64,000 bases of DNA, taken from contig JBQTHZ010000010.1 of NCBI GenBank assembly GCA_052388515.1, forward strand, positions 565 to 64,564. The letters run 5' to 3'. This DNA comes from Chloroflexota bacterium (GTDB lineage: Bacteria > Chloroflexota > Limnocylindria > QHBO01). How positions within the stretch are numbered: position 1 is the stretch's first letter; every line of letters starts with the position of its first letter. The notes under the pieces were generated by a model. It ran no database searches and was not told the DNA's origin. It worked only from the letters and a program-made list of their open reading frames with translations. Both the position numbers and the translations under genes were made by a program. This document shows, piece after piece, positions 19,550 to 61,606 of the stretch.

Positions 19550-19676
19550 TTGCTGCGTCGGCAACTATCGGCCAATGAGCGCCCCTGGGAGCCGGCTCAG
19601 CCGTCGTCGCTTGCCACCACGGCAACGCACGACCGAAGTCCGGTTGCTCCGTCGCCGTTAGTTGCCGCTCCAGCAA
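19550..19676. repeat. array of three TTGC-N7-GCAA palindromic elements (19550-19564, 19611-19625, 19662-19676), spacings 61 and 51 bp
   Basis: TTGCTGCGTCGGCAA, TTGCCACCACGGCAA and TTGCCGCTCCAGCAA in the purD / UPF0182 intergenic region. The flanks (cgtTTGC...GCAAc) are similar to the other arrays. Confidence 0.7.
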
Positions 19677-26976: not shown

Positions 26977-28017
26977 TCAGGCGTACAACGTGGCGAGCCG
27001 GTGCGCCTCCTCGTCCAGTTCGTGCCGCTCTGACGGCGTGAGGTCGCGGAGCGGCGCGAGTTGGATCTCGGAATGCTCGAAGCGCCACGTGCCGGCCACC
27101 TGCCCGTCAACCAGGAAGGTGTTGTGCGAATGCGGCGTCTTCGTGTTGAAGATGAGCGGCCGATACTCCTCGGGGAGCACCTGCGTTCGGCGAGCGTGGA
27201 CCAGGAGCATCGCGTCCCACACCGCCAGGAAGCGGGGTGGTGCGGGCGTCTCAGGATCCGGCAGCGGAGCACCCGGCAGATCGACCAGCGTCTTGCCGGC
27301 TTCGTCGTGCAGCGCGCGCAGCTCCATGCCATCGGCAACATGCTTCATCTGGCCAACGTTGAGTCCCATCCAGCTGGCGACGTCCCTGAGTGGCGCCGGG
27401 CCGAACGCGCCGAGGTAGCGGCGGATGAGATGCTCGATCCCGTCGTCCTCGCTGACCTCAACCGGAGGAATCCATTGATCGGCGGGGCCGTAGAGGTCCG
27501 CCCGGCGTTGCTCCCATGTCCCCGATGGTGGAACCCGGACCATATCGACCCACAGCCCAGCCCAGTTGGCCGAGCGCGGCGGGAAGCCGCGTGCCACCAA
27601 ACGTTGCGTCAGCTCATTCATGCGCAGCGGCCCGCTCGCGAGCTCGTCGCGGACGGCAACGGCGACGGCCTCCATGTCGGTGGTGCGGACGTCGCGCTGA
27701 ACCCTTGTGTACCACTCGCGGTTGACGCGCCGGATCCCGGCCATCATCGGCCAATAGTCGGCGGCCGAAACGGTATGGATGGTCGCCCGCATCATCGTCG
27801 CCTGGATGGCCCGTCGCTCCTCGAGAGCCTGCGTCAGCATCGGCCTGTCGAAGTCATGCATGCGCGACCACAGGCCGATGTAGCCCGCCGGGGCGTACTG
27901 CATCTGGATCCCGCCCATCTGCTCCATGACCTCGGTCAGGCTCAGTGCCGATCGCTCCAGGAGGGATTGGCGCGCGAGGAGCGCGCGGTTCAACGCGCGG
28001 GTTGTCACCGGCTTCAT
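26977..28017 (-). CDS. AlkZ/YcaQ-like winged-helix DNA glycosylase family protein (paralog 1)
   Basis: N-terminal MKPVTTRALNRALLARQSLL... is co-linear with the second copy at 37940. The family resemblance (HTH_42 / interstrand-crosslink glycosylase AlkZ/YcaQ) rests on length (~345 aa) and the conserved N-terminal block. The upstream 31-aa ORF extension is ignored. Confidence 0.7.
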   Translation of the reverse strand: MKPVTTRALNRALLARQSLLERSALSLTEVMEQMGGIQMQYAPAGYIGLWSRMHDFDRPMLTQALEERRAIQATMMRATIHTVSAADYWPMMAGIRRVNREWYTRVQRDVRTTDMEAVAVAVRDELASGPLRMNELTQRLVARGFPPRSANWAGLWVDMVRVPPSGTWEQRRADLYGPADQWIPPVEVSEDDGIEHLIRRYLGAFGPAPLRDVASWMGLNVGQMKHVADGMELRALHDEAGKTLVDLPGAPLPDPETPAPPRFLAVWDAMLLVHARRTQVLPEEYRPLIFNTKTPHSHNTFLVDGQVAGTWRFEHSEIQLAPLRDLTPSERHELDEEAHRLATLYA

Positions 28018-28049: not shown

Positions 28050-28236
28050 TTGCCGAAGGAGCAACTAACGACAATGGAAGCGCCCTTGACTCGGCGGGCG
28101 TTGCTCGCATCGCAACATGCGACGGTCAAGCGCCGGTTCCGAGCGCCAACTCCGACAATAGTTGCCGGGCTGGCAAACGGCCGGGACCAGTGACGACGAA
28201 CAGCGCCAACTCCGTCGTTCGTTGCCGCGCCGGCAA
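28050..28236. repeat. array of four TTGC-N7-GCAA palindromic elements (28050-28064, 28101-28115, 28162-28176, 28222-28236), spacings 51, 61, 60 bp
   Basis: TTGCCGAAGGAGCAA, TTGCTCGCATCGCAA, TTGCCGGGCTGGCAA and TTGCCGCGCCGGCAA in the intergenic region between guaB3-like stop and AlkZ-like paralog 1 start. The last two units are ~45-bp direct repeats (agcgccaactccg...gttgccg.gc.ggcaa). Confidence 0.7.
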
Positions 28237-30184: not shown

Positions 30185-31303
30185 TCACCGAGGGGCGGGA
30201 CGCGGCTCCCCTACGGTAGCGTCCGTCGACGACTGGTCGTCGAGCGAGCGGCGGATGCTGTCGCGGATCTCTTCGGCGCGCGACCGTGCCGGCATCGGCT
30301 CGGGCATCTCCATCGGCGCATCCGTCGGCGTCGGCGCGGGCTCGTCGGAGACGTGGCGTGGCGCCGAGCGCACCGCGCGACGCACGGCCAGCTCGCGGTC
30401 CTCGACGATTCGCTCCGCGATGCGGCGGACCTCGGTCGTGAGCCACAGGTAGGCGGTCGAATCGAGCGTGTAGTCGGCCTCCGCGAACGCGTGGATGCGG
30501 CCATCGCGCTGGAGCGAGCTGATCTGCTCGAACTGGGCCAGCGACCCGCGCTGGTAGACGCCGAATGCCAGTCCACCGTTGGCTCGCACGACCGACCACG
30601 CAGGGACATCGGACGGGCCGTCGGCGATGTAGATCATGTGCTCGAATGGCACACGACGAAGATCCGCCGAGAGTGCCGAGTTGACGTGGATCTCGGGCCG
30701 CTTGTTCGTGCCCTTGTTGATTTCGAACAACGCGCGCGTCTTGCTGGTGTTGTCGATCTGGTATCCGAGGGCCGTGATCTCGCTGCTCGGAAAGAGCTGC
30801 CGCTGCTCGGGCCTGACGTAGCCAGGCGGGTGGTGCGCCTCGATGAACTCGCACGCCCACACGTCCTCCACGTATCGGCGAATGGCGCTGCCCTCGATCA
30901 TGGGCCGCAGGCCGGTGCTGACCACGTAGTGCTCGAGCGTGACGTCCGCGCGCTGGAAGGCGGGCTCCTCCTGGACCGAATCGCGCAGCCTGGCAAGAAA
31001 GTCGGGCATCCCGGGGTGATAGGTCAGCTCGGCGCCGAGCTCGAGCAGCGTCGCATTCGACAGCCCCTTGAACACGCCTGCGCGGACGTACTCGAGGATG
31101 TGGTTGAGATACAGCGAGTCATCGGCGACACGCCGGGCGCCGTGGGCCAGGTAGAAGTCACCGAGCGCGTCGACCTCGTCCCAGAACGCACGTTCGTCCA
31201 CCCCGTAGCGCGCGAACAGCGGCGACTGCATGTTGCCCGGGATGAGCGTCTTGTCGAAGTCCCAGACGACGGCAATCACCGTCTGGCTGAAGGGTCCTGC
31301 CAT
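30185..31303 (-). CDS. HAD-superfamily hydrolase
   Basis: HAD motif I (VVWDFDKTL), motif III/IV (IYIADGPSDV) and a long cap region. The start is placed at MAGPFSQ (ATG 31301-31303). The C-terminal ~60 aa are low complexity. Confidence 0.7.
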   Translation of the reverse strand: MAGPFSQTVIAVVWDFDKTLIPGNMQSPLFARYGVDERAFWDEVDALGDFYLAHGARRVADDSLYLNHILEYVRAGVFKGLSNATLLELGAELTYHPGMPDFLARLRDSVQEEPAFQRADVTLEHYVVSTGLRPMIEGSAIRRYVEDVWACEFIEAHHPPGYVRPEQRQLFPSSEITALGYQIDNTSKTRALFEINKGTNKRPEIHVNSALSADLRRVPFEHMIYIADGPSDVPAWSVVRANGGLAFGVYQRGSLAQFEQISSLQRDGRIHAFAEADYTLDSTAYLWLTTEVRRIAERIVEDRELAVRRAVRSAPRHVSDEPAPTPTDAPMEMPEPMPARSRAEEIRDSIRRSLDDQSSTDATVGEPRPAPR

Positions 31304-31438
31304 GCGACTCGATGTGCGGGCTGTCAACGGAGCGTGCAGTCTAGCCGTGCTCGTCAACGCTGCCTCATGGCCCAATGGTCCCGTGGAGGACGACAGCCTT
31401 GCCGACGAGAACTCCTCCGCGGATTCGTGGCCGGTCAT

Positions 31439-35804: not shown

Positions 35805-36202
35805 GACAGGCGAGACACGGGCACGGCGAGGCGGACTCCGATCGGTGGGTGAGGATTGCGCCCGGCCGGTCCGGGATGAATGAGGACCGTCGAGCACCGG
35901 GCGCATGGCCATCGTCGCAGCCGAGGCAAGTGGCTTTCCCACCGAACGATGCCGGATGGGTCGTCCGTTGGTGGATATCGCCCCTGCCGATGTGGAAAAC
36001 AGGGTCTCATCGTGCGCGACGTGGACATGACTCGAACGTATGCTCGGTTCGTGACAACCGTCTGTCGCAATCGGCACATCGTCAGGTCAACGGGCATGCA
36101 CCCGCACAGCGTGGCGCGGCGTCTGTTGCATGCATCGGCTCATCTGTTCGCCTCGAGGGCGACCCGACGCGCATGCATCGCCATCGGCCGGCGCCCGAGG
36201 GG

Positions 36203-37140: not shown

Positions 37141-37212
37141 TGGACAACTCCGGGTGTGGTCCGGGCGGGTGGAAATGATAACAGGGCAGGCGGTTGGCTT
37201 CGGTTTGACATT

Positions 37213-37226
37213 AGAACATGCGTTCT
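37213..37226. promoter_or_regulatory. LexA (Cheo/SOS) box AGAACATGCGTTCT upstream of lexA
   Basis: GAAC-N4-GTTC palindrome 50 nt upstream of the lexA ATG, in the divergent intergenic region shared with the DUF1232 gene. Confidence 0.75.
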
Positions 37227-37275
37227 GCTACGGTGCTGTCCAATCCGATGAACGCACCGATGTGCGGAGGACACC

Positions 37276-37929
37276 TTGACCAGGCACGATGCAGAGCGAC
37301 GACAGCGCATCCTCGACTGTATTGCGCAGACCGTGGAGGAACGCGGATACCCACCGTCGGTCCGCGAGATCGCCGATGCCGTCGGCCTCGCGTCGACGAG
37401 CGCTGTCCATCATCACCTGCTCGCCCTCGAGCGCGACGGTCTGCTCGAGCGCGGGACCCACTCCTCCAGGGCGTTGCGCCTGACCGCGCCGCGGCCGCAG
37501 GCGGCCGATCCGGCGAAGGTGACGCCGTTCCGGATGCCCGTCGAGCGTGACACCCTCACGCTGCCGGTGATGGGCGAGATCGCCGCCGGTCAGCCGATCG
37601 AGGCCTACGCAGATGCTTCCGAGACGCTCGCCGTCCCACGCTCGATGGAGGCGCGCGAGGACTCCTATGTCTTGCGGGTCCGCGGCAAGAGCATGATCGA
37701 TGCGCTCATCGACGACGGTGACTTCGTCATCGTCCAGCCGCAGGCCACTGCCCGCGACGGCGACATCGTCGTCGCCCTGCTCGAGGACAACGGCGTCACG
37801 CTCAAGCGCTACTTCATGGAGAAGGACCGCATCCGGCTTCAGCCGGCGAACGCCGAGATGGAGCCAATCTACGCCACCGAGGTCCAGATCCAGGGCAAGG
37901 TGGTCGGCGTCATCCGCCGCCTCGCCTGA
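37276..37929 (+). CDS. lexA: LexA repressor
   Basis: 217 aa with an N-terminal wHTH (SVREIADAVGLASTSAVHHHLLALERDGLLER), the AG cleavage site and an S24 peptidase domain (RVRGKSM...K). Confidence 0.9.
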   Translation: MTRHDAERRQRILDCIAQTVEERGYPPSVREIADAVGLASTSAVHHHLLALERDGLLERGTHSSRALRLTAPRPQAADPAKVTPFRMPVERDTLTLPVMGEIAAGQPIEAYADASETLAVPRSMEAREDSYVLRVRGKSMIDALIDDGDFVIVQPQATARDGDIVVALLEDNGVTLKRYFMEKDRIRLQPANAEMEPIYATEVQIQGKVVGVIRRLA

Positions 37930-37939
37930 TCAAAGCTGC

Positions 37940-39121
37940 ATGGCGCCCATCACGGCGCGCGAGCTGAATCGCGCCACGCTGGCGCGCCAGGGCCTGCTCG
38001 AGCCGATGGCCACGGTGACCGCCGGTGAGGCGGTCAGGCGGTTTGGATCATTACAGGCCCAGCATCCGGAATGGCCGCCCGTGGCGCTGGCATCGCGCGC
38101 TGCTGATGCGGCGACCTGCGATCTCACGGGCGGATTGACCCGCCGCGAGATCGTACGCAGCTCGCTGATGCGGAACACGATCCACGTCATCGCCACCGGC
38201 GACCTGTGGCCCATGTTCGCGGTGTGCCAGCCTCTTCGCCTCAACCAGTGGCGGCTGCTCATGAAGGCCGATCCCATCGACTCCACGCTCGGCAGGCAGA
38301 TGGCGGCCGCGCACCCCGCCGCCATCGCCGCGCTCCGCGAGCAACCTCGATCGTCGCTCGAGATCGACCGCCTCATGGGGGAGGAGCTCGGTCCTGGCAC
38401 CACGTCCGTTTCGCGACCGGCTCGGCGCGAGCCGGAGGCGCGCGTGGTGGTTCGGGCGGCCTGGCGCCACTTCTCCGCATTCGTACCGCTCGTGCACGTG
38501 CCGCACGACGGAGAAGGCTACGGCCGATCCAGGTACGCACTCGCCGCCGATTGGATCGGAGAGCAGCGGCCACCGGTGGATGAGGCAGGAGCACGCGCGC
38601 ACGTGGCTCGGCGGTACCTGGCCGCGTTCGGTCCTGCCAGCGTCGACGACCTCGTCGCGTACGTGGGGCGCGGCAAGGGCGGCATCGGGCCGTGGCGGCA
38701 CGCGGTTGCGTCGCTCGCGGGCGAGCTGATCGAGCTCCGCGACGAAGCGGGACGCACGCTGTACGACATCGGTGACGCTCCGCGCCCCGACGCGGATGTT
38801 CCGGTTCCGCCGCGCCTGCTGGCTCGTTGGGACAGCCTCCTGTTGTCGCATGCCCCGAAGCATCGAGGCCGGATCATCGCCGACACGCACCGGCCGGCCG
38901 TATTCAGCAAGAATGCAGACGTGCTTCCGACGTTCCTGGTGGATGGAGTGGTCGCCGGCACATGGGAGCTGTCAAGGGCCCCCGATCGCATCGCGATCGA
39001 ACTGCGACCGTTTGCCCGCCTCGCCCGCCCTGAGCGGTTCGCTCTCGAGTCGGAGGCGCAACGGGTCCTGGAGCTGCTTGCGCGCCACGCGTCGACACGT
39101 CAGATCGCGTTCGCACGCTGA
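37940..39121 (+). CDS. AlkZ/YcaQ-like winged-helix DNA glycosylase family protein (paralog 2), in the lexA operon
   Basis: 393 aa beginning MAPITARELNRATLARQGLLEP, paralogous to the 26977-28017 gene. It starts 10 nt after the lexA stop and ends 20 nt before dinB. Confidence 0.7.
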   Translation: MAPITARELNRATLARQGLLEPMATVTAGEAVRRFGSLQAQHPEWPPVALASRAADAATCDLTGGLTRREIVRSSLMRNTIHVIATGDLWPMFAVCQPLRLNQWRLLMKADPIDSTLGRQMAAAHPAAIAALREQPRSSLEIDRLMGEELGPGTTSVSRPARREPEARVVVRAAWRHFSAFVPLVHVPHDGEGYGRSRYALAADWIGEQRPPVDEAGARAHVARRYLAAFGPASVDDLVAYVGRGKGGIGPWRHAVASLAGELIELRDEAGRTLYDIGDAPRPDADVPVPPRLLARWDSLLLSHAPKHRGRIIADTHRPAVFSKNADVLPTFLVDGVVAGTWELSRAPDRIAIELRPFARLARPERFALESEAQRVLELLARHASTRQIAFAR

Positions 39122-39141
39122 CGGCTCGGCAGGACCGGACG

Positions 39142-40422
39142 ATGGTACGACGCCGACCGGACGCGCACCATGGCCAAGCGATGCGCACGATCATCCACGC
39201 CGATCTCGATGCCTTCTATGCCAGCGTCGAAGTGCTGGATGACCCTTCACTGAGGGGGAAACCCGTCATCGTCGGCGGCCGGCCCGACGAACGCGGGGTG
39301 GTGAGCGCGGCATCGTACGAGGCGCGCCGATACGGCGTTCAGTCCGCGATGCCGTTGCGCACCGCGGGACGGCGCTGCCCGCACGGCGTCTTTCTTCCGG
39401 GCCGGCCCGATCGATACCGCGAGGTGTCACGGCAGGTCATGGCCGTCGTTACCTCCTACACCCCGCTGGTCGAGCCGATCAGCCTGGACGAGGCATTCCT
39501 CGACGTGACCGCCAGCGCTGCGGCGTTCGGTGACGGACCGACCATTGCGCGCCGGATCAAGGAGCGCGTTCGCGACGAGATCGGGCTGGTGGTATCGGTC
39601 GGTGTCGCCACGAACAAGCTGTGCGCCAAGGTCGCCTCCGACCTGCGGAAGCCCGATGCGCTCGTGATCGTGGCGCCCGGCGACGAGGCCGGCTTCCTCG
39701 CACCGCTTCCCATCCGGCGACTCTGGGGTGTCGGGCCACAGGCACAGCAGGCGCTCGGCGACTATGGCGTCTCGACCATCGGCCAGCTGGCAGCCCTGGA
39801 CCCGGCCACGCTCGAGCGTCGCTTTGGACGGCACGGCGCCGCCCTGGCATCTCGGGCTCGCGGCATCGACACGGCCCGGGTGGAGCCGCTGCAGACGCCG
39901 AAGAGCGTCGGACACGAGCACACATACGACGTTGACAGCGCTGATGCCGGCCGGCTCGAGGCAACCCTTCTCGACCTCGCTGAATCGGTCGCCAGCCGCC
40001 TGCGGCGCCATGACCTCGCGGCCGGTGCCGTGCAGCTGAAGCTCCGCTACGAGGGGTTCGAGACGCTGACTCGCCAGGCACCGCTGCCCTACCAGACCCG
40101 CGACACCGACCCACTGTTCGACACGGGCGTCGCGCTGCTGCGTCGCACGCTGGTCGCGGGTCGCGGCGTGCGGCTGATCGGCCTCACGGCGATCTCGCTC
40201 TCCGCCGCGCAGCAGCTCACCCTGTTCGGCGCGCCCGAACGCGAGGACCGCCTGGCGCGCTCCATCGATGCCGTGCGGGAACGATTCGGCGACGGCGCCA
40301 TCACGCGCGCCCGACTGCTCGCCGAACGACCGCACCGACGCTTCGACTTCGGCGAGCGACCGCGAGTGAGCGCCGATGCGTCTGACGCGGGGGTTGACGA
40401 ACCGAACAGGCGTTCGGTATAG
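39142..40422 (+). CDS. dinB: DNA polymerase IV (Y-family translesion polymerase)
   Basis: IIHADLDAFYASVEVLDDPSLRGKPVIVGG and the YEAR.YGV.SAMP motifs of DinB. The alternative start is ATG 39181. The 3' end overlaps the SOS promoter of the downstream gene. Confidence 0.85.
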   Translation: MVRRRPDAHHGQAMRTIIHADLDAFYASVEVLDDPSLRGKPVIVGGRPDERGVVSAASYEARRYGVQSAMPLRTAGRRCPHGVFLPGRPDRYREVSRQVMAVVTSYTPLVEPISLDEAFLDVTASAAAFGDGPTIARRIKERVRDEIGLVVSVGVATNKLCAKVASDLRKPDALVIVAPGDEAGFLAPLPIRRLWGVGPQAQQALGDYGVSTIGQLAALDPATLERRFGRHGAALASRARGIDTARVEPLQTPKSVGHEHTYDVDSADAGRLEATLLDLAESVASRLRRHDLAAGAVQLKLRYEGFETLTRQAPLPYQTRDTDPLFDTGVALLRRTLVAGRGVRLIGLTAISLSAAQQLTLFGAPEREDRLARSIDAVRERFGDGAITRARLLAERPHRRFDFGERPRVSADASDAGVDEPNRRSV

Positions 40423-40450
40423 TCTCCGTCTGAATCGAACGCCTGTTCGA
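40394..40450 (+). promoter_or_regulatory. SOS promoter: -35 TTGACG (40394-40399), 18-nt spacer, -10 TATAGT (40418-40423) with two perfect LexA boxes CGAACAGGCGTTCG (40403-40416) and TCGAACGCCTGTTCGA (40435-40450)
   Basis: Box 1 lies in the spacer and box 2 just after the predicted TSS. The two boxes are reverse complements of each other. An AGGAGCA RBS precedes the downstream ATG at 40488. Confidence 0.75.
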
Positions 40451-40487
40451 GTGCCCGAGCAGGTTCCCCGCACCCAGGAGCAGACAC

Positions 40488-40751
40488 ATGGCACTCGTAC
40501 AGATCTCCCCCATCGAAGCGCACGTCCGCTGGGATCGGCACGCCAAGCGCCCGTCCGAGGTGCGCTGGAACGGTCATCATCTCCGCGTCGTGCAGCTCGA
40601 CGCAGTCCGCGACGAGCGATCCGCCTATCCGGCCGAGCGCGGCCCCCGCGTGACGTTCGTCCTGCGCACCACCGACGGTGGCCGGGCCTCCGTGGTCTAC
40701 GACGGCCGACGCAGGCGCTGGTTCCTGGAGGCAGTCGAGCGCGCCGCCTGA
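40488..40751 (+). CDS. small SOS-regulated protein of unknown function (87 aa, Arg-rich, no TM)
   Basis: Good RBS (AGGAGCA, 7-nt spacing) and a promoter with a double LexA operator. Followed by a perfect 8-bp hairpin terminator. No family recognised. Confidence 0.6.
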   Translation: MALVQISPIEAHVRWDRHAKRPSEVRWNGHHLRVVQLDAVRDERSAYPAERGPRVTFVLRTTDGGRASVVYDGRRRRWFLEAVERAA

Positions 40752-46400: not shown

Positions 46401-46996
46401 CGTGCTCCCGTGCTGGCGTTGTCATCGCGCACGGGGCATCGCCACCGCCTCCGCCGAGGCGCGGCGGAGTGCGTGGCCGTCTTCTCCCTTCCGGACTGTG
46501 ACCGTCGGCCCTGTCTACCCCGGCGCTGCGCCGGGGGTCAGGTCAGCCGCATCAATGCCTGATCGATGCGGTTCGCGGGCTGGCTCGGTCTCGAGCCGAC
46601 CGCCGGTGGGGACTTTCACCCCGCCCCGAAGACGATGGATGGTTCGATTGGCCCGATCGTGGCACGCGCCGCGGTGGCGGTCAACTCCCTGCCGCCGTTC
46701 GTCGTGCATCAGTTTGGGGTACGACGCCCGACCGCCACAACCACCGGAACACGAGCGAGGCTGCTGCGACGCCGAGTGCGGTCGGGGTGCTCGGGACCGG
46801 CAGTACCTCGCGTTCCATCGAGGCCACAGCGCCGGAGGTCGATGGGAGGCGCGACTCTCGCGATTCACGACCACGGCACGCGCCTGACCTGCGCCCGGGG
46901 GCGGGGGCTTACGCGTGGTGGTTTCGCCAGACCGCGAGAATCGCGCCCGAGACGGACCTCGGGCGTCCAGGTCTACATAGATCGCGACGCGGACGG

Positions 46997-61445: not shown

Positions 61446-61606
61446 TTGCTGGCCCAGCAACTAATGCGTTTGCTGGCCCAGCAACTAATGGTGGACTTCG
61501 GGCCACGAACCGGGCTTCCGTCGTCGCCTGTTGCTGGCCCACCAACTCAGAACCAGCGAGGCCGCCGAACGGGTGTCTCCACTGCAGATAGTTGCTCCCC
61601 CAGCAA
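61446..61606. repeat. array of four TTGC-N7-GCAA palindromic elements (61446-61460, 61470-61484, 61531-61545, 61592-61606), spacings 24, 61, 61 bp
   Basis: TTGCTGGCCCAGCAA x2 (a near-perfect 24-bp tandem duplication cgtttTGCTGGCCCAGCAActaatg), TTGCTGGCCCACCAA and TTGCTCCCCCAGCAA. All lie in the divergent intergenic region upstream of the MBL hydrolase gene. Confidence 0.7.

Follow-up and report, generated by a model that had tools for sequence, protein, structure and literature searches.

An AlkZ-like DNA glycosylase gene between lexA and dinB in a predicted LexA-controlled operon of Limnocylindria

We describe a block of three genes, lexA–alkZ1–dinB, in a 64,000-nucleotide (nt) stretch of DNA (the window, meaning that stretch at its full length) from a soil Chloroflexota bacterium of the class Limnocylindria (GenBank assembly GCA_052388515.1, contig JBQTHZ010000010.1, positions 565 to 64,564 of the forward strand). 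The block encodes LexA, an AlkZ-like DNA glycosylase and DNA polymerase IV (DinB), and the best full explanation we can offer is that it constitutes an autorepressed, damage-inducible operon, a reading that we hold with fair confidence. Such an operon had been proposed in a preliminary description of this DNA, an interpretation that is supported here at the sequence level. The features of the block are as follows (coordinates are those of the window; aa, amino acids; PWM, position weight matrix).

37205..37210, plus strand: -35 hexamer TTGACA of the lexA promoter, read from the sequence
37213..37226, no strand assigned: LexA operator, a predicted Cheo-type box AGAACATGCGTTCT that fills the 18-nt promoter spacer; PWM score 29.5
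37229..37234, plus strand: -10 hexamer TACGGT of the lexA promoter, 18 nt past the -35 hexamer; TAnnnT is conserved
37266..37271, plus strand: Shine-Dalgarno sequence GGAGGA for lexA, 4 nt before the TTG start
37276..37929, plus strand: lexA, 217 aa, TTG start, with LexA_DNA_bind and Peptidase_S24 domains (Pfam, NCBIfam)
37940..39121, plus strand: alkZ1, 393 aa, AlkZ-like (HTH_42) DNA glycosylase with Q39-A-Q41; ATG start without a Shine-Dalgarno sequence
39142 or 39181..40422, plus strand: dinB (DNA polymerase IV), 426 aa or 413 aa, with Pfam IMS, IMS_HHH and IMS_C domains

The layout agrees closely with what had been described from the letters alone, namely a lone LexA box about 50 nt before lexA and intergenic gaps of 10 and 20 nt. 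The box upstream of the block, AGAACATGCGTTCT, ends 49 nt before the lexA start codon, the gap from the lexA stop codon to the alkZ1 ATG is 10 nt, and that from the alkZ1 stop codon to dinB is 20 nt for the ATG at 39142 or 59 nt for the later ATG at 39181. The MRTIIH N-terminus produced by the later start aligns with that of most orthologues, and dinB of the closest relatives is also called from there. In Firmicutes and Actinobacteria the LexA motif is GAAC-N4-GTTC, of which Chloroflexi have variants (PMC4951493). This core occurs four times in the 64 kb against 0.48 expected, a count reached by 1 of 100 shuffles, and the four occurrences are the lexA site, two directly after dinB and one within a HAD-like gene. 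We also scanned the whole window on either strand with the consensus of these promoters themselves (TTGACA with ≤1 mismatch, N16-19, TAnnnT) and obtained only two matches, both with LexA boxes; because the sole two matches are predicted to be LexA-controlled, the SOS promoters seem unusually near consensus for a genome of 69% G+C.

The block itself is free of recognizable internal signals. Using a LexA PWM built from 182 orthologous sites, we found no LexA site between the lexA start and the dinB start (best score -9.9, against a shuffle maximum of 12.1), and since this compares with 29.5 at the operator, the earlier statement that dinB lacks a LexA box of its own holds. Neither a generic promoter scan nor the own-consensus scan returned a promoter-like site within the block, and its lone terminator-like hairpin sits inside dinB, at chance level. 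No terminators or structured RNA were found at the two gene junctions (folds with z of -1.7 and +0.6 relative to shuffles). A search for promoters or terminators separating the three genes, a check suggested in the preliminary description, thus returned no consensus promoter, LexA site or terminator. On these grounds co-transcription of all three genes in the window appears likely, and our confidence in co-transcription of lexA and alkZ1 is higher still.

The two outer genes are assigned without difficulty. LexA matches PF01726 (E 1.7e-21) and PF00717 (E 3.7e-32) in Pfam and the equivalog TIGR00498 in NCBIfam (199.4 bits, cut-off 110.95). It contains Ala104-Gly105 in IAAGQP, Ser139 in GKSM and Lys177 in LKRY, which, by comparison with Escherichia coli LexA, we take to be the self-cleavage site and the catalytic dyad, respectively; as all of these residues are present, the protein should be cleavable. 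DinB matches PF00817 (E 8e-50) and PF11799 (E 1.4e-25) as well as the equivalog NF002677 (368.7 bits, cut-off 256), and both catalytic acidic motifs, DLDAFYASVE and SLDEAFLDV, are there.

The middle gene had been called AlkZ/YcaQ-like, and only the first half of that label stands. AlkZ1 matches PF06224 over profile positions 1-328 of 329 (E 9.5e-56, Pfam), and by sequence its sole solved relative is Streptomyces sahachiroi AlkZ (E 7e-8), with whose QAQ motif Q39-A-Q41 aligns. Its AlphaFold2 model (predicted local distance difference test score, pLDDT, 84.6; predicted template modelling score, pTM, 0.84) contains a low-confidence extra segment at about residues 150-170 and was matched by Foldseek first to AlkZ, with its tandem winged helices and C-terminal beta domain (5UUJ; E 2.2e-18, template modelling (TM) scores 0.76/0.80) and next to AlkX/YcaQ (9ZD6, TM ~0.6). 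Published criteria distinguish AlkZ-like (AZL) proteins, with a (Q/H)-phi-Q motif, from YcaQ-like (YQL) proteins, with Q-phi-D (PMC9040887, PMC7367128), and by these criteria AlkZ1 is AlkZ-like and not YcaQ-like. A YQL assignment was rejected because the motif is Q-phi-Q rather than Q-phi-D, because BLASTP detected no pairwise similarity between AlkZ1 and E. coli YcaQ (best E 0.95) and because the TM score is lower. The Q-phi-Q motif is invariant in 20 AlkZ1 homologues from a protein-search alignment free of motif-seed bias, and it occurs as QAQ, QGQ or QSQ in 79/79 genomic loci from a scan that was partly motif-seeded.

We then asked how far the layout extends beyond the window. One genome per species was scanned, seeded by the glycosylase only, which gave 80 loci (numbered L001 onwards), 75 of them orthologous (47-76% identity) and nearly all of these labelled Limnocylindria or Chloroflexota; the closest AlkZ1 proteins are from Candidatus Limnocylindria metagenome-assembled genomes. 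Three further loci were obtained by contig look-up, one of which is the same contig as L005, so that gap statistics have n=78, or 77 without the duplicate. The recurring order is rplI (minus strand), DUF1232 (minus strand), lexA, alkZ1, dinB, s87 (a small gene described below), an FTCD-like gene and folD. In every locus with enough upstream sequence (73/73), lexA lies directly 5' of alkZ1, with a gap of 4-61 nt (median 13), while dinB follows within ≤60 nt of alkZ1 in 56/66; the 66 measured alkZ1–dinB pairs have a median gap of 9 nt, with overlaps of 1 or 4 nt in six of them. The operator is as constant as the adjacency: the string TTGACA-(A/T)T-AGAAC-N4-GTTCT-GC-TAnnnT is kept in 73/73 loci while its flanks diverge, with an exact GAAC-N4-GTTC at the identical promoter position and the -35 element as (T/A/G/C)TTGACA throughout. 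Since relatives across the class share the lexA–alkZ1–dinB layout, we take it to be real; chance adjacency of lexA and alkZ1 was considered and is ruled out by this synteny together with the operator kept in 73/73 loci. Shine-Dalgarno-like sequences precede only 14/77 alkZ1 starts and 11/60 dinB starts, a scarcity that points to translational coupling.

In the loci seen outside these orthologues the arrangement is absent. Five outgroup loci (37-41% identity; Actinobacteria and one Limnocylindrales paralogue) have no lexA and no box nearby. The distant lineage L088 has an inverted lexA with its own box, no adjacent alkZ, and a dinB that is unlinked and without a box.

The absolute linkage of alkZ1 to lexA (73/73), tighter than that to dinB, invites the thought that AlkZ1 is a winged-helix DNA-binding partner of LexA (a co-regulator, damage sensor or anti-repressor) and not primarily a repair enzyme. 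The HTH_42 family is built from winged-helix modules, and the fixed synteny of the orthologues differs from the AZL genes of Streptomyces, which are diverse and multi-copy, with about one-fifth in biosynthetic gene clusters (PMC9040887). However, Q-phi-Q, the motif on which base excision by AlkZ depends, does not vary, the full length of AlkZ1 is predicted to fold as AlkZ does, and the characterized single-domain members of the family are all glycosylases (PMC7367128, PMC9040887, PMC11228520), so a mainly regulatory role strikes us as very improbable.

Some variation among the orthologous loci deserves separate description. In one sublineage (L036, L040, L041, L045, L047, L049, L050, L053, L057 and L082), lexA and s87 start 7-8 nt past the -10 element, and both mRNAs appear, from the sequence, to be leaderless. 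The lexA–alkZ1 spacer of this sublineage measures 49-61 nt and carries a GC-rich hairpin GGCGGCCGC...GCGGCCGC followed by TAGGCTGGAG. In L001 (6225-10459) and L002 (6223-9807), a large guanylate-cyclase/AAA/TPR gene and an opposite-strand gene lie between alkZ1 and dinB. Seven loci (L021, L023, L031, L035, L049, L056 and L058) show the full Limnocylindria synteny under other deposited names (Steroidobacteraceae, Angelobacter, Pleomorphomonadaceae, Methylomirabilota and Zixiibacteriota) and were probably misbinned or mislabelled in the assemblies from which they come.

Several points weigh against the operon as we propose it. Inserted genes split dinB from alkZ1 in 10/66 loci, and where the DNA upstream of such a dinB is readable (L001, L002/L005 and L020) it contains no exact LexA box, which implies that dinB can be expressed without the lexA promoter. 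Promoters in a genome of 69% G+C may stray from consensus, and either the alkZ1 3' end or the spacer of 20-59 nt may hold a weak internal promoter. No T-tract terminator was found after dinB, so the transcript may continue into the next LexA-controlled unit. In the sublineage with the 49-61 nt hairpin spacer, expression of lexA and alkZ1 may be uncoupled. As to the enzyme, the conservation of Q-phi-Q over the genomic loci is partly by construction, one scan seed having been SLQAQHPE.

The invariant core is therefore lexA–alkZ1, and of the two downstream genes dinB is the less constant. It could be that the core is all there is to the conserved unit and that dinB is expressed mainly from a LexA-independent promoter of its own, in the alkZ1 3' end or the spacer; dinB would then be a neighbour by ancestry, and polymerase IV not truly SOS-controlled in this genome. 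The difference between 73/73 and 56/66 adjacencies speaks for such an arrangement, as do the displaced dinB genes without a box, the unlinked dinB of L088 and a gap to the conserved MRT start that is unusually long (59-60 nt) in the window and its closest relatives. On the other hand, the alkZ1–dinB gap is ≤19 nt in most loci, the six overlapping pairs do so as ATGA or TGATG, Shine-Dalgarno sequences before dinB are rare, no promoter-like site was found in the block, and read-through from the lexA promoter would induce dinB even if an internal promoter existed. We judge a separate dinB unit unlikely; in this clade dinB appears to come under LexA control by being fused to the lexA–alkZ1 core.

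Under the three-gene operon that we favour, lexA, alkZ1 and dinB would be carried on one mRNA from a near-consensus sigma-70-type promoter. In an undamaged cell, LexA bound between the -35 and -10 hexamers would keep the unit low, including its own gene. Upon DNA damage, RecA filaments would trigger LexA self-cleavage at Ala104-Gly105, the promoter would open, and new LexA, polymerase IV and a monofunctional glycosylase of the AlkZ type would all be made from the single mRNA. At bulky or crosslinked N7-alkylguanines the glycosylase would break the N-glycosidic bond, so that interstrand crosslinks would be unhooked and abasic sites would remain, and polymerase IV would replicate across what is left after unhooking or across a template that is abasic or alkylated. 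Translation of alkZ1 and of dinB is probably coupled to that of the gene before each, since they mostly lack ribosome-binding sites of their own and start a few nt past, or overlapping, the preceding stop codon.

Beyond what had been described before, the next gene, s87, has two strong LexA boxes of its own, located directly after dinB.

40394..40449, plus strand: second predicted LexA-controlled promoter, inside and after the dinB 3' end
40394-40399 and 40418-40423, plus strand: -35 TTGACG and -10 TATAGT of this promoter, the latter overlapping the dinB stop codon; spacer 18
40403-40416: box 1 CGAACAGGCGTTCG, in the spacer of the s87 promoter; PWM 24.4
40436-40449: box 2 CGAACGCCTGTTCG, 20 nt downstream of box 1; PWM 28.0
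40488..40751, plus strand: s87, a conserved 87-aa all-beta protein with a C-terminal Ala-Ala

The s87 promoter and its boxes are displayed as conserved in 46/58 loci compared; for the remaining 12/58 the promoter fell outside the interval that was extracted, yet these loci have exact boxes too. The twin-box promoter is also kept in the distant L088-L091 lineage, which is without the lexA–alkZ fusion. We rejected the idea that the boxes are a mere terminator hairpin, because in most relatives the central bases do not pair, whereas conservation extends over the GAAC/GTTC arms and the surrounding -35 and -10 elements. Within 40440-40465, CCTGTTCG from the 3' half of box 2 is pairable with CGAGCAGG six bases downstream, and this 3' arm varies among relatives, mostly keeping the pairing through G-U. 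RNAalifold on the s87 leader called only the LexA palindrome and not the CCTGTTCG/CGAGCAGG helix.

This second promoter raises the question of where the transcript ends. Transcription may run beyond three genes into s87 and perhaps the FTCD-like gene and folD, with the twin-box promoter serving as an internal, tighter SOS promoter. The -35 and -10 elements at 40394-40423 lie within and across the dinB end, the stretch behind dinB has no T-tract terminator that we could find, and the order dinB–s87–FTCD–folD is kept even where lexA and alkZ1 are not adjacent. Against this, boxes 1 and 2 of the window are exact reverse complements whose predicted 16-bp RNA hairpin (z -4.85) could stop or pause transcription; in most relatives the central four box bases are not complementary. 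LexA on two operators would also be a roadblock in uninduced cells. A longer transcript is accordingly a possibility that we rate as rather doubtful, and the three-gene unit remains our preferred description.

The s87 product had no Pfam or NCBIfam match. Its structural model has six beta strands (pLDDT 89), and no match to the fold was found in the PDB. The family has 94 representatives in a 50%-clustered library, nearly all of them stand-alone proteins of 85-125 aa, with W78 and R41 invariant and R54 near-invariant. The C-terminus is almost always Ala-Ala (RAA, PAA, TAA and similar; alignment A5), which presumably resembles the C-terminal signal read by ClpXP on ssrA-tagged proteins and, by that analogy, suggests a short-lived SOS effector. 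Stand-alone ImuB-C domains, whose commonest linkage is to DinB and which are often linked to LexA as well, are described as rich in beta structure, with basic residues and a conserved Trp at the C-terminus (PMC3765255); the strands, W78, R41/R54, the dinB neighbour and the predicted LexA control of s87 all fit this description. The statistical links fall below significance: Pfam DUF6504 was matched by 2/36 s87 orthologues (best E 0.015) and by a distant member of the family, P0282 (E 1.7e-4, below cut-off), residues 430-500 of Sinorhizobium meliloti ImuB, taken from an unannotated pSymA sequence, matched the same profile with E 6.5e-3, and hhalign aligned 12 columns only (E 0.14). We treat s87 as possibly a stand-alone ImuB-C-like domain, a lead and no more.

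The window holds one other gene of the glycosylase family, which had been placed outside the operon and behind an array of TTGC-N7-GCAA sites.

26977-28017, minus strand: AlkZ2, second AlkZ-like paralogue (PF06224, E 2.7e-67)

Both points were borne out. AlkZ2 is 34% identical to AlkZ1 and has QMQ as its Q-phi-Q motif, so that the catalytic motif profiling proposed earlier gives a Q-phi-Q in both paralogues. An IMPDH-family gene lies upstream of AlkZ2, and the TTGC-N7-GCAA array (four sites, 28050-28236) separates the two; no LexA-like site precedes AlkZ2 (best PWM -15.4). In all, the window has 10 TTGC-N7-GCAA sites against 0.45 expected, in arrays at 19550-19676, 28050-28236 and 61446-61606, with spacings of ~24 to 122 nt overall and ~50-61 nt in the first two; a stretch resembling ...CGGAGTTGGCGCT recurs behind each site of the array that precedes AlkZ2.

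Further LexA-like sequences and one RNA element were seen elsewhere in the window. A degenerate LexA-like site, CGAACGTATGCTCG, at 36030-36049 (PWM 16.8, above all shuffles) lies in the 420-nt gene-free rplI–dnaB gap. Exact LexA boxes occur in the equivalent rplI–dnaB region of three relatives (L025:2205, L050:2193 and L073:1766), and most relatives have a SnoaL-like open reading frame in this gap, which the window is without. A HAD-like hydrolase gene (30185-31438, minus strand) contains an exact GAACGCACGTTC in its 5' part, at 31184-31195; this match is probably due to chance, as its flanks fit the PWM poorly (12.3). A flavin mononucleotide (FMN) riboswitch is located at 46475-46637 on the minus strand (Rfam RF00050, 79.7 bits, E 1.8e-16).

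These results bear on what HTH_42 glycosylases do, and how they are regulated, in cells other than antibiotic producers, and a survey of Streptomyces had called for the study of gene neighbourhoods beyond that genus (PMC9040887). The class-wide layout yields a testable model in which damage-inducible crosslink unhooking is coupled to lesion bypass, and it suggests that crosslinking or bulky alkylating genotoxins are a regular encounter for soil Limnocylindria. The results also provide a clean LexA operator and promoter model for a Chloroflexota class that is uncultured, and they flag a new small SOS protein, while the general understanding of the SOS response is unchanged. A broader synthesis, which we advance tentatively and with somewhat more doubt than belief, is that Limnocylindria wired an AlkZ-type glycosylase for crosslinks or bulky adducts to LexA, giving what would be the first HTH_42 protein shown to be LexA-controlled and a dedicated unhook-then-bypass module with polymerase IV, completed by a previously undescribed, twin-operator, probably short-lived 87-aa protein, possibly an ImuB-C, that would act on DinB.

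Several known systems share parts of this arrangement. By sequence and fold, the best match to AlkZ1 is the AZL protein S. sahachiroi AlkZ (5UUJ), with which it shares Q-phi-Q although identity is only ~20%, and compared with the Streptomyces AZL genes alkZ1 is a conserved syntenic chromosomal gene inside a lexA operon. The YQL proteins E. coli YcaQ and Acinetobacter baumannii AlkX resemble AlkZ1 in superfamily and fold (9ZD6) and, like it, are encoded by chromosomal genes in a conserved neighbourhood, in their case for general repair, while differing in having Q-phi-D. AlkZ1 would therefore combine AZL chemistry, judged from its motif, with the conserved, fixed-neighbourhood lifestyle of YQL genes. 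As for regulation, E. coli ycaQ is constitutive and, when tested, was not induced together with lexA and uvrA (PMC7367128), and A. baumannii alkX is induced by mechlorethamine and by acid, in a paper that nowhere mentions LexA (PMC11228520). A 2026 study of repair-gene loss in Limnocylindria mentions neither LexA nor the AlkZ-like family (PMC13212565).

Precedent for a LexA-controlled base-excision glycosylase comes from the SOS operon of a uracil-DNA glycosylase and a radical-SAM protein in Verrucomicrobia and Bacteroidetes (PMC4951493, PMC8565304), although that glycosylase belongs to an unrelated family and lies outside the lexA operon with no link to dinB. Precedent for the fusion of lexA to translesion functions in a LexA-repressed operon comes from lexA–imuA–imuB–dnaE2 and other LexA-headed cassettes (for example in Opitutus terrae; PMC4951493, PMC6511836), which are without a glycosylase and pair an inactive ImuB with DnaE2, whereas the DinB of the window has its catalytic motifs. 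We found no HTH_42 glycosylase under LexA control in the literature, and, given that the known operon precedents lack one and that E. coli ycaQ is constitutive, such control of this family appears to be unreported.

The closest precedent in shape is the lexA–imuB-C–polY (lexA–dinB) operon of Geobacter sulfurreducens, which is reported to be induced by damage and transcribed as one unit (PMC6511836, citing Jara 2003). The two share an autoregulated lexA in first place, a Y-family polymerase in last place and one gene between them, and differ in that the middle gene of Geobacter is a stand-alone ImuB-C domain and that of Limnocylindria a 393-aa AlkZ-like glycosylase. They differ further in their LexA motif, GGTT-N10-AACC in Geobacter (PMC8565304) and GAAC-N4-GTTC in the window, and in that the possible ImuB-C-like s87 of the window follows dinB behind a twin-operator promoter of its own. 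In sum, we regard the lexA–alkZ1–dinB block as a new variation on SOS operons already known, rather than as a system of a new kind.

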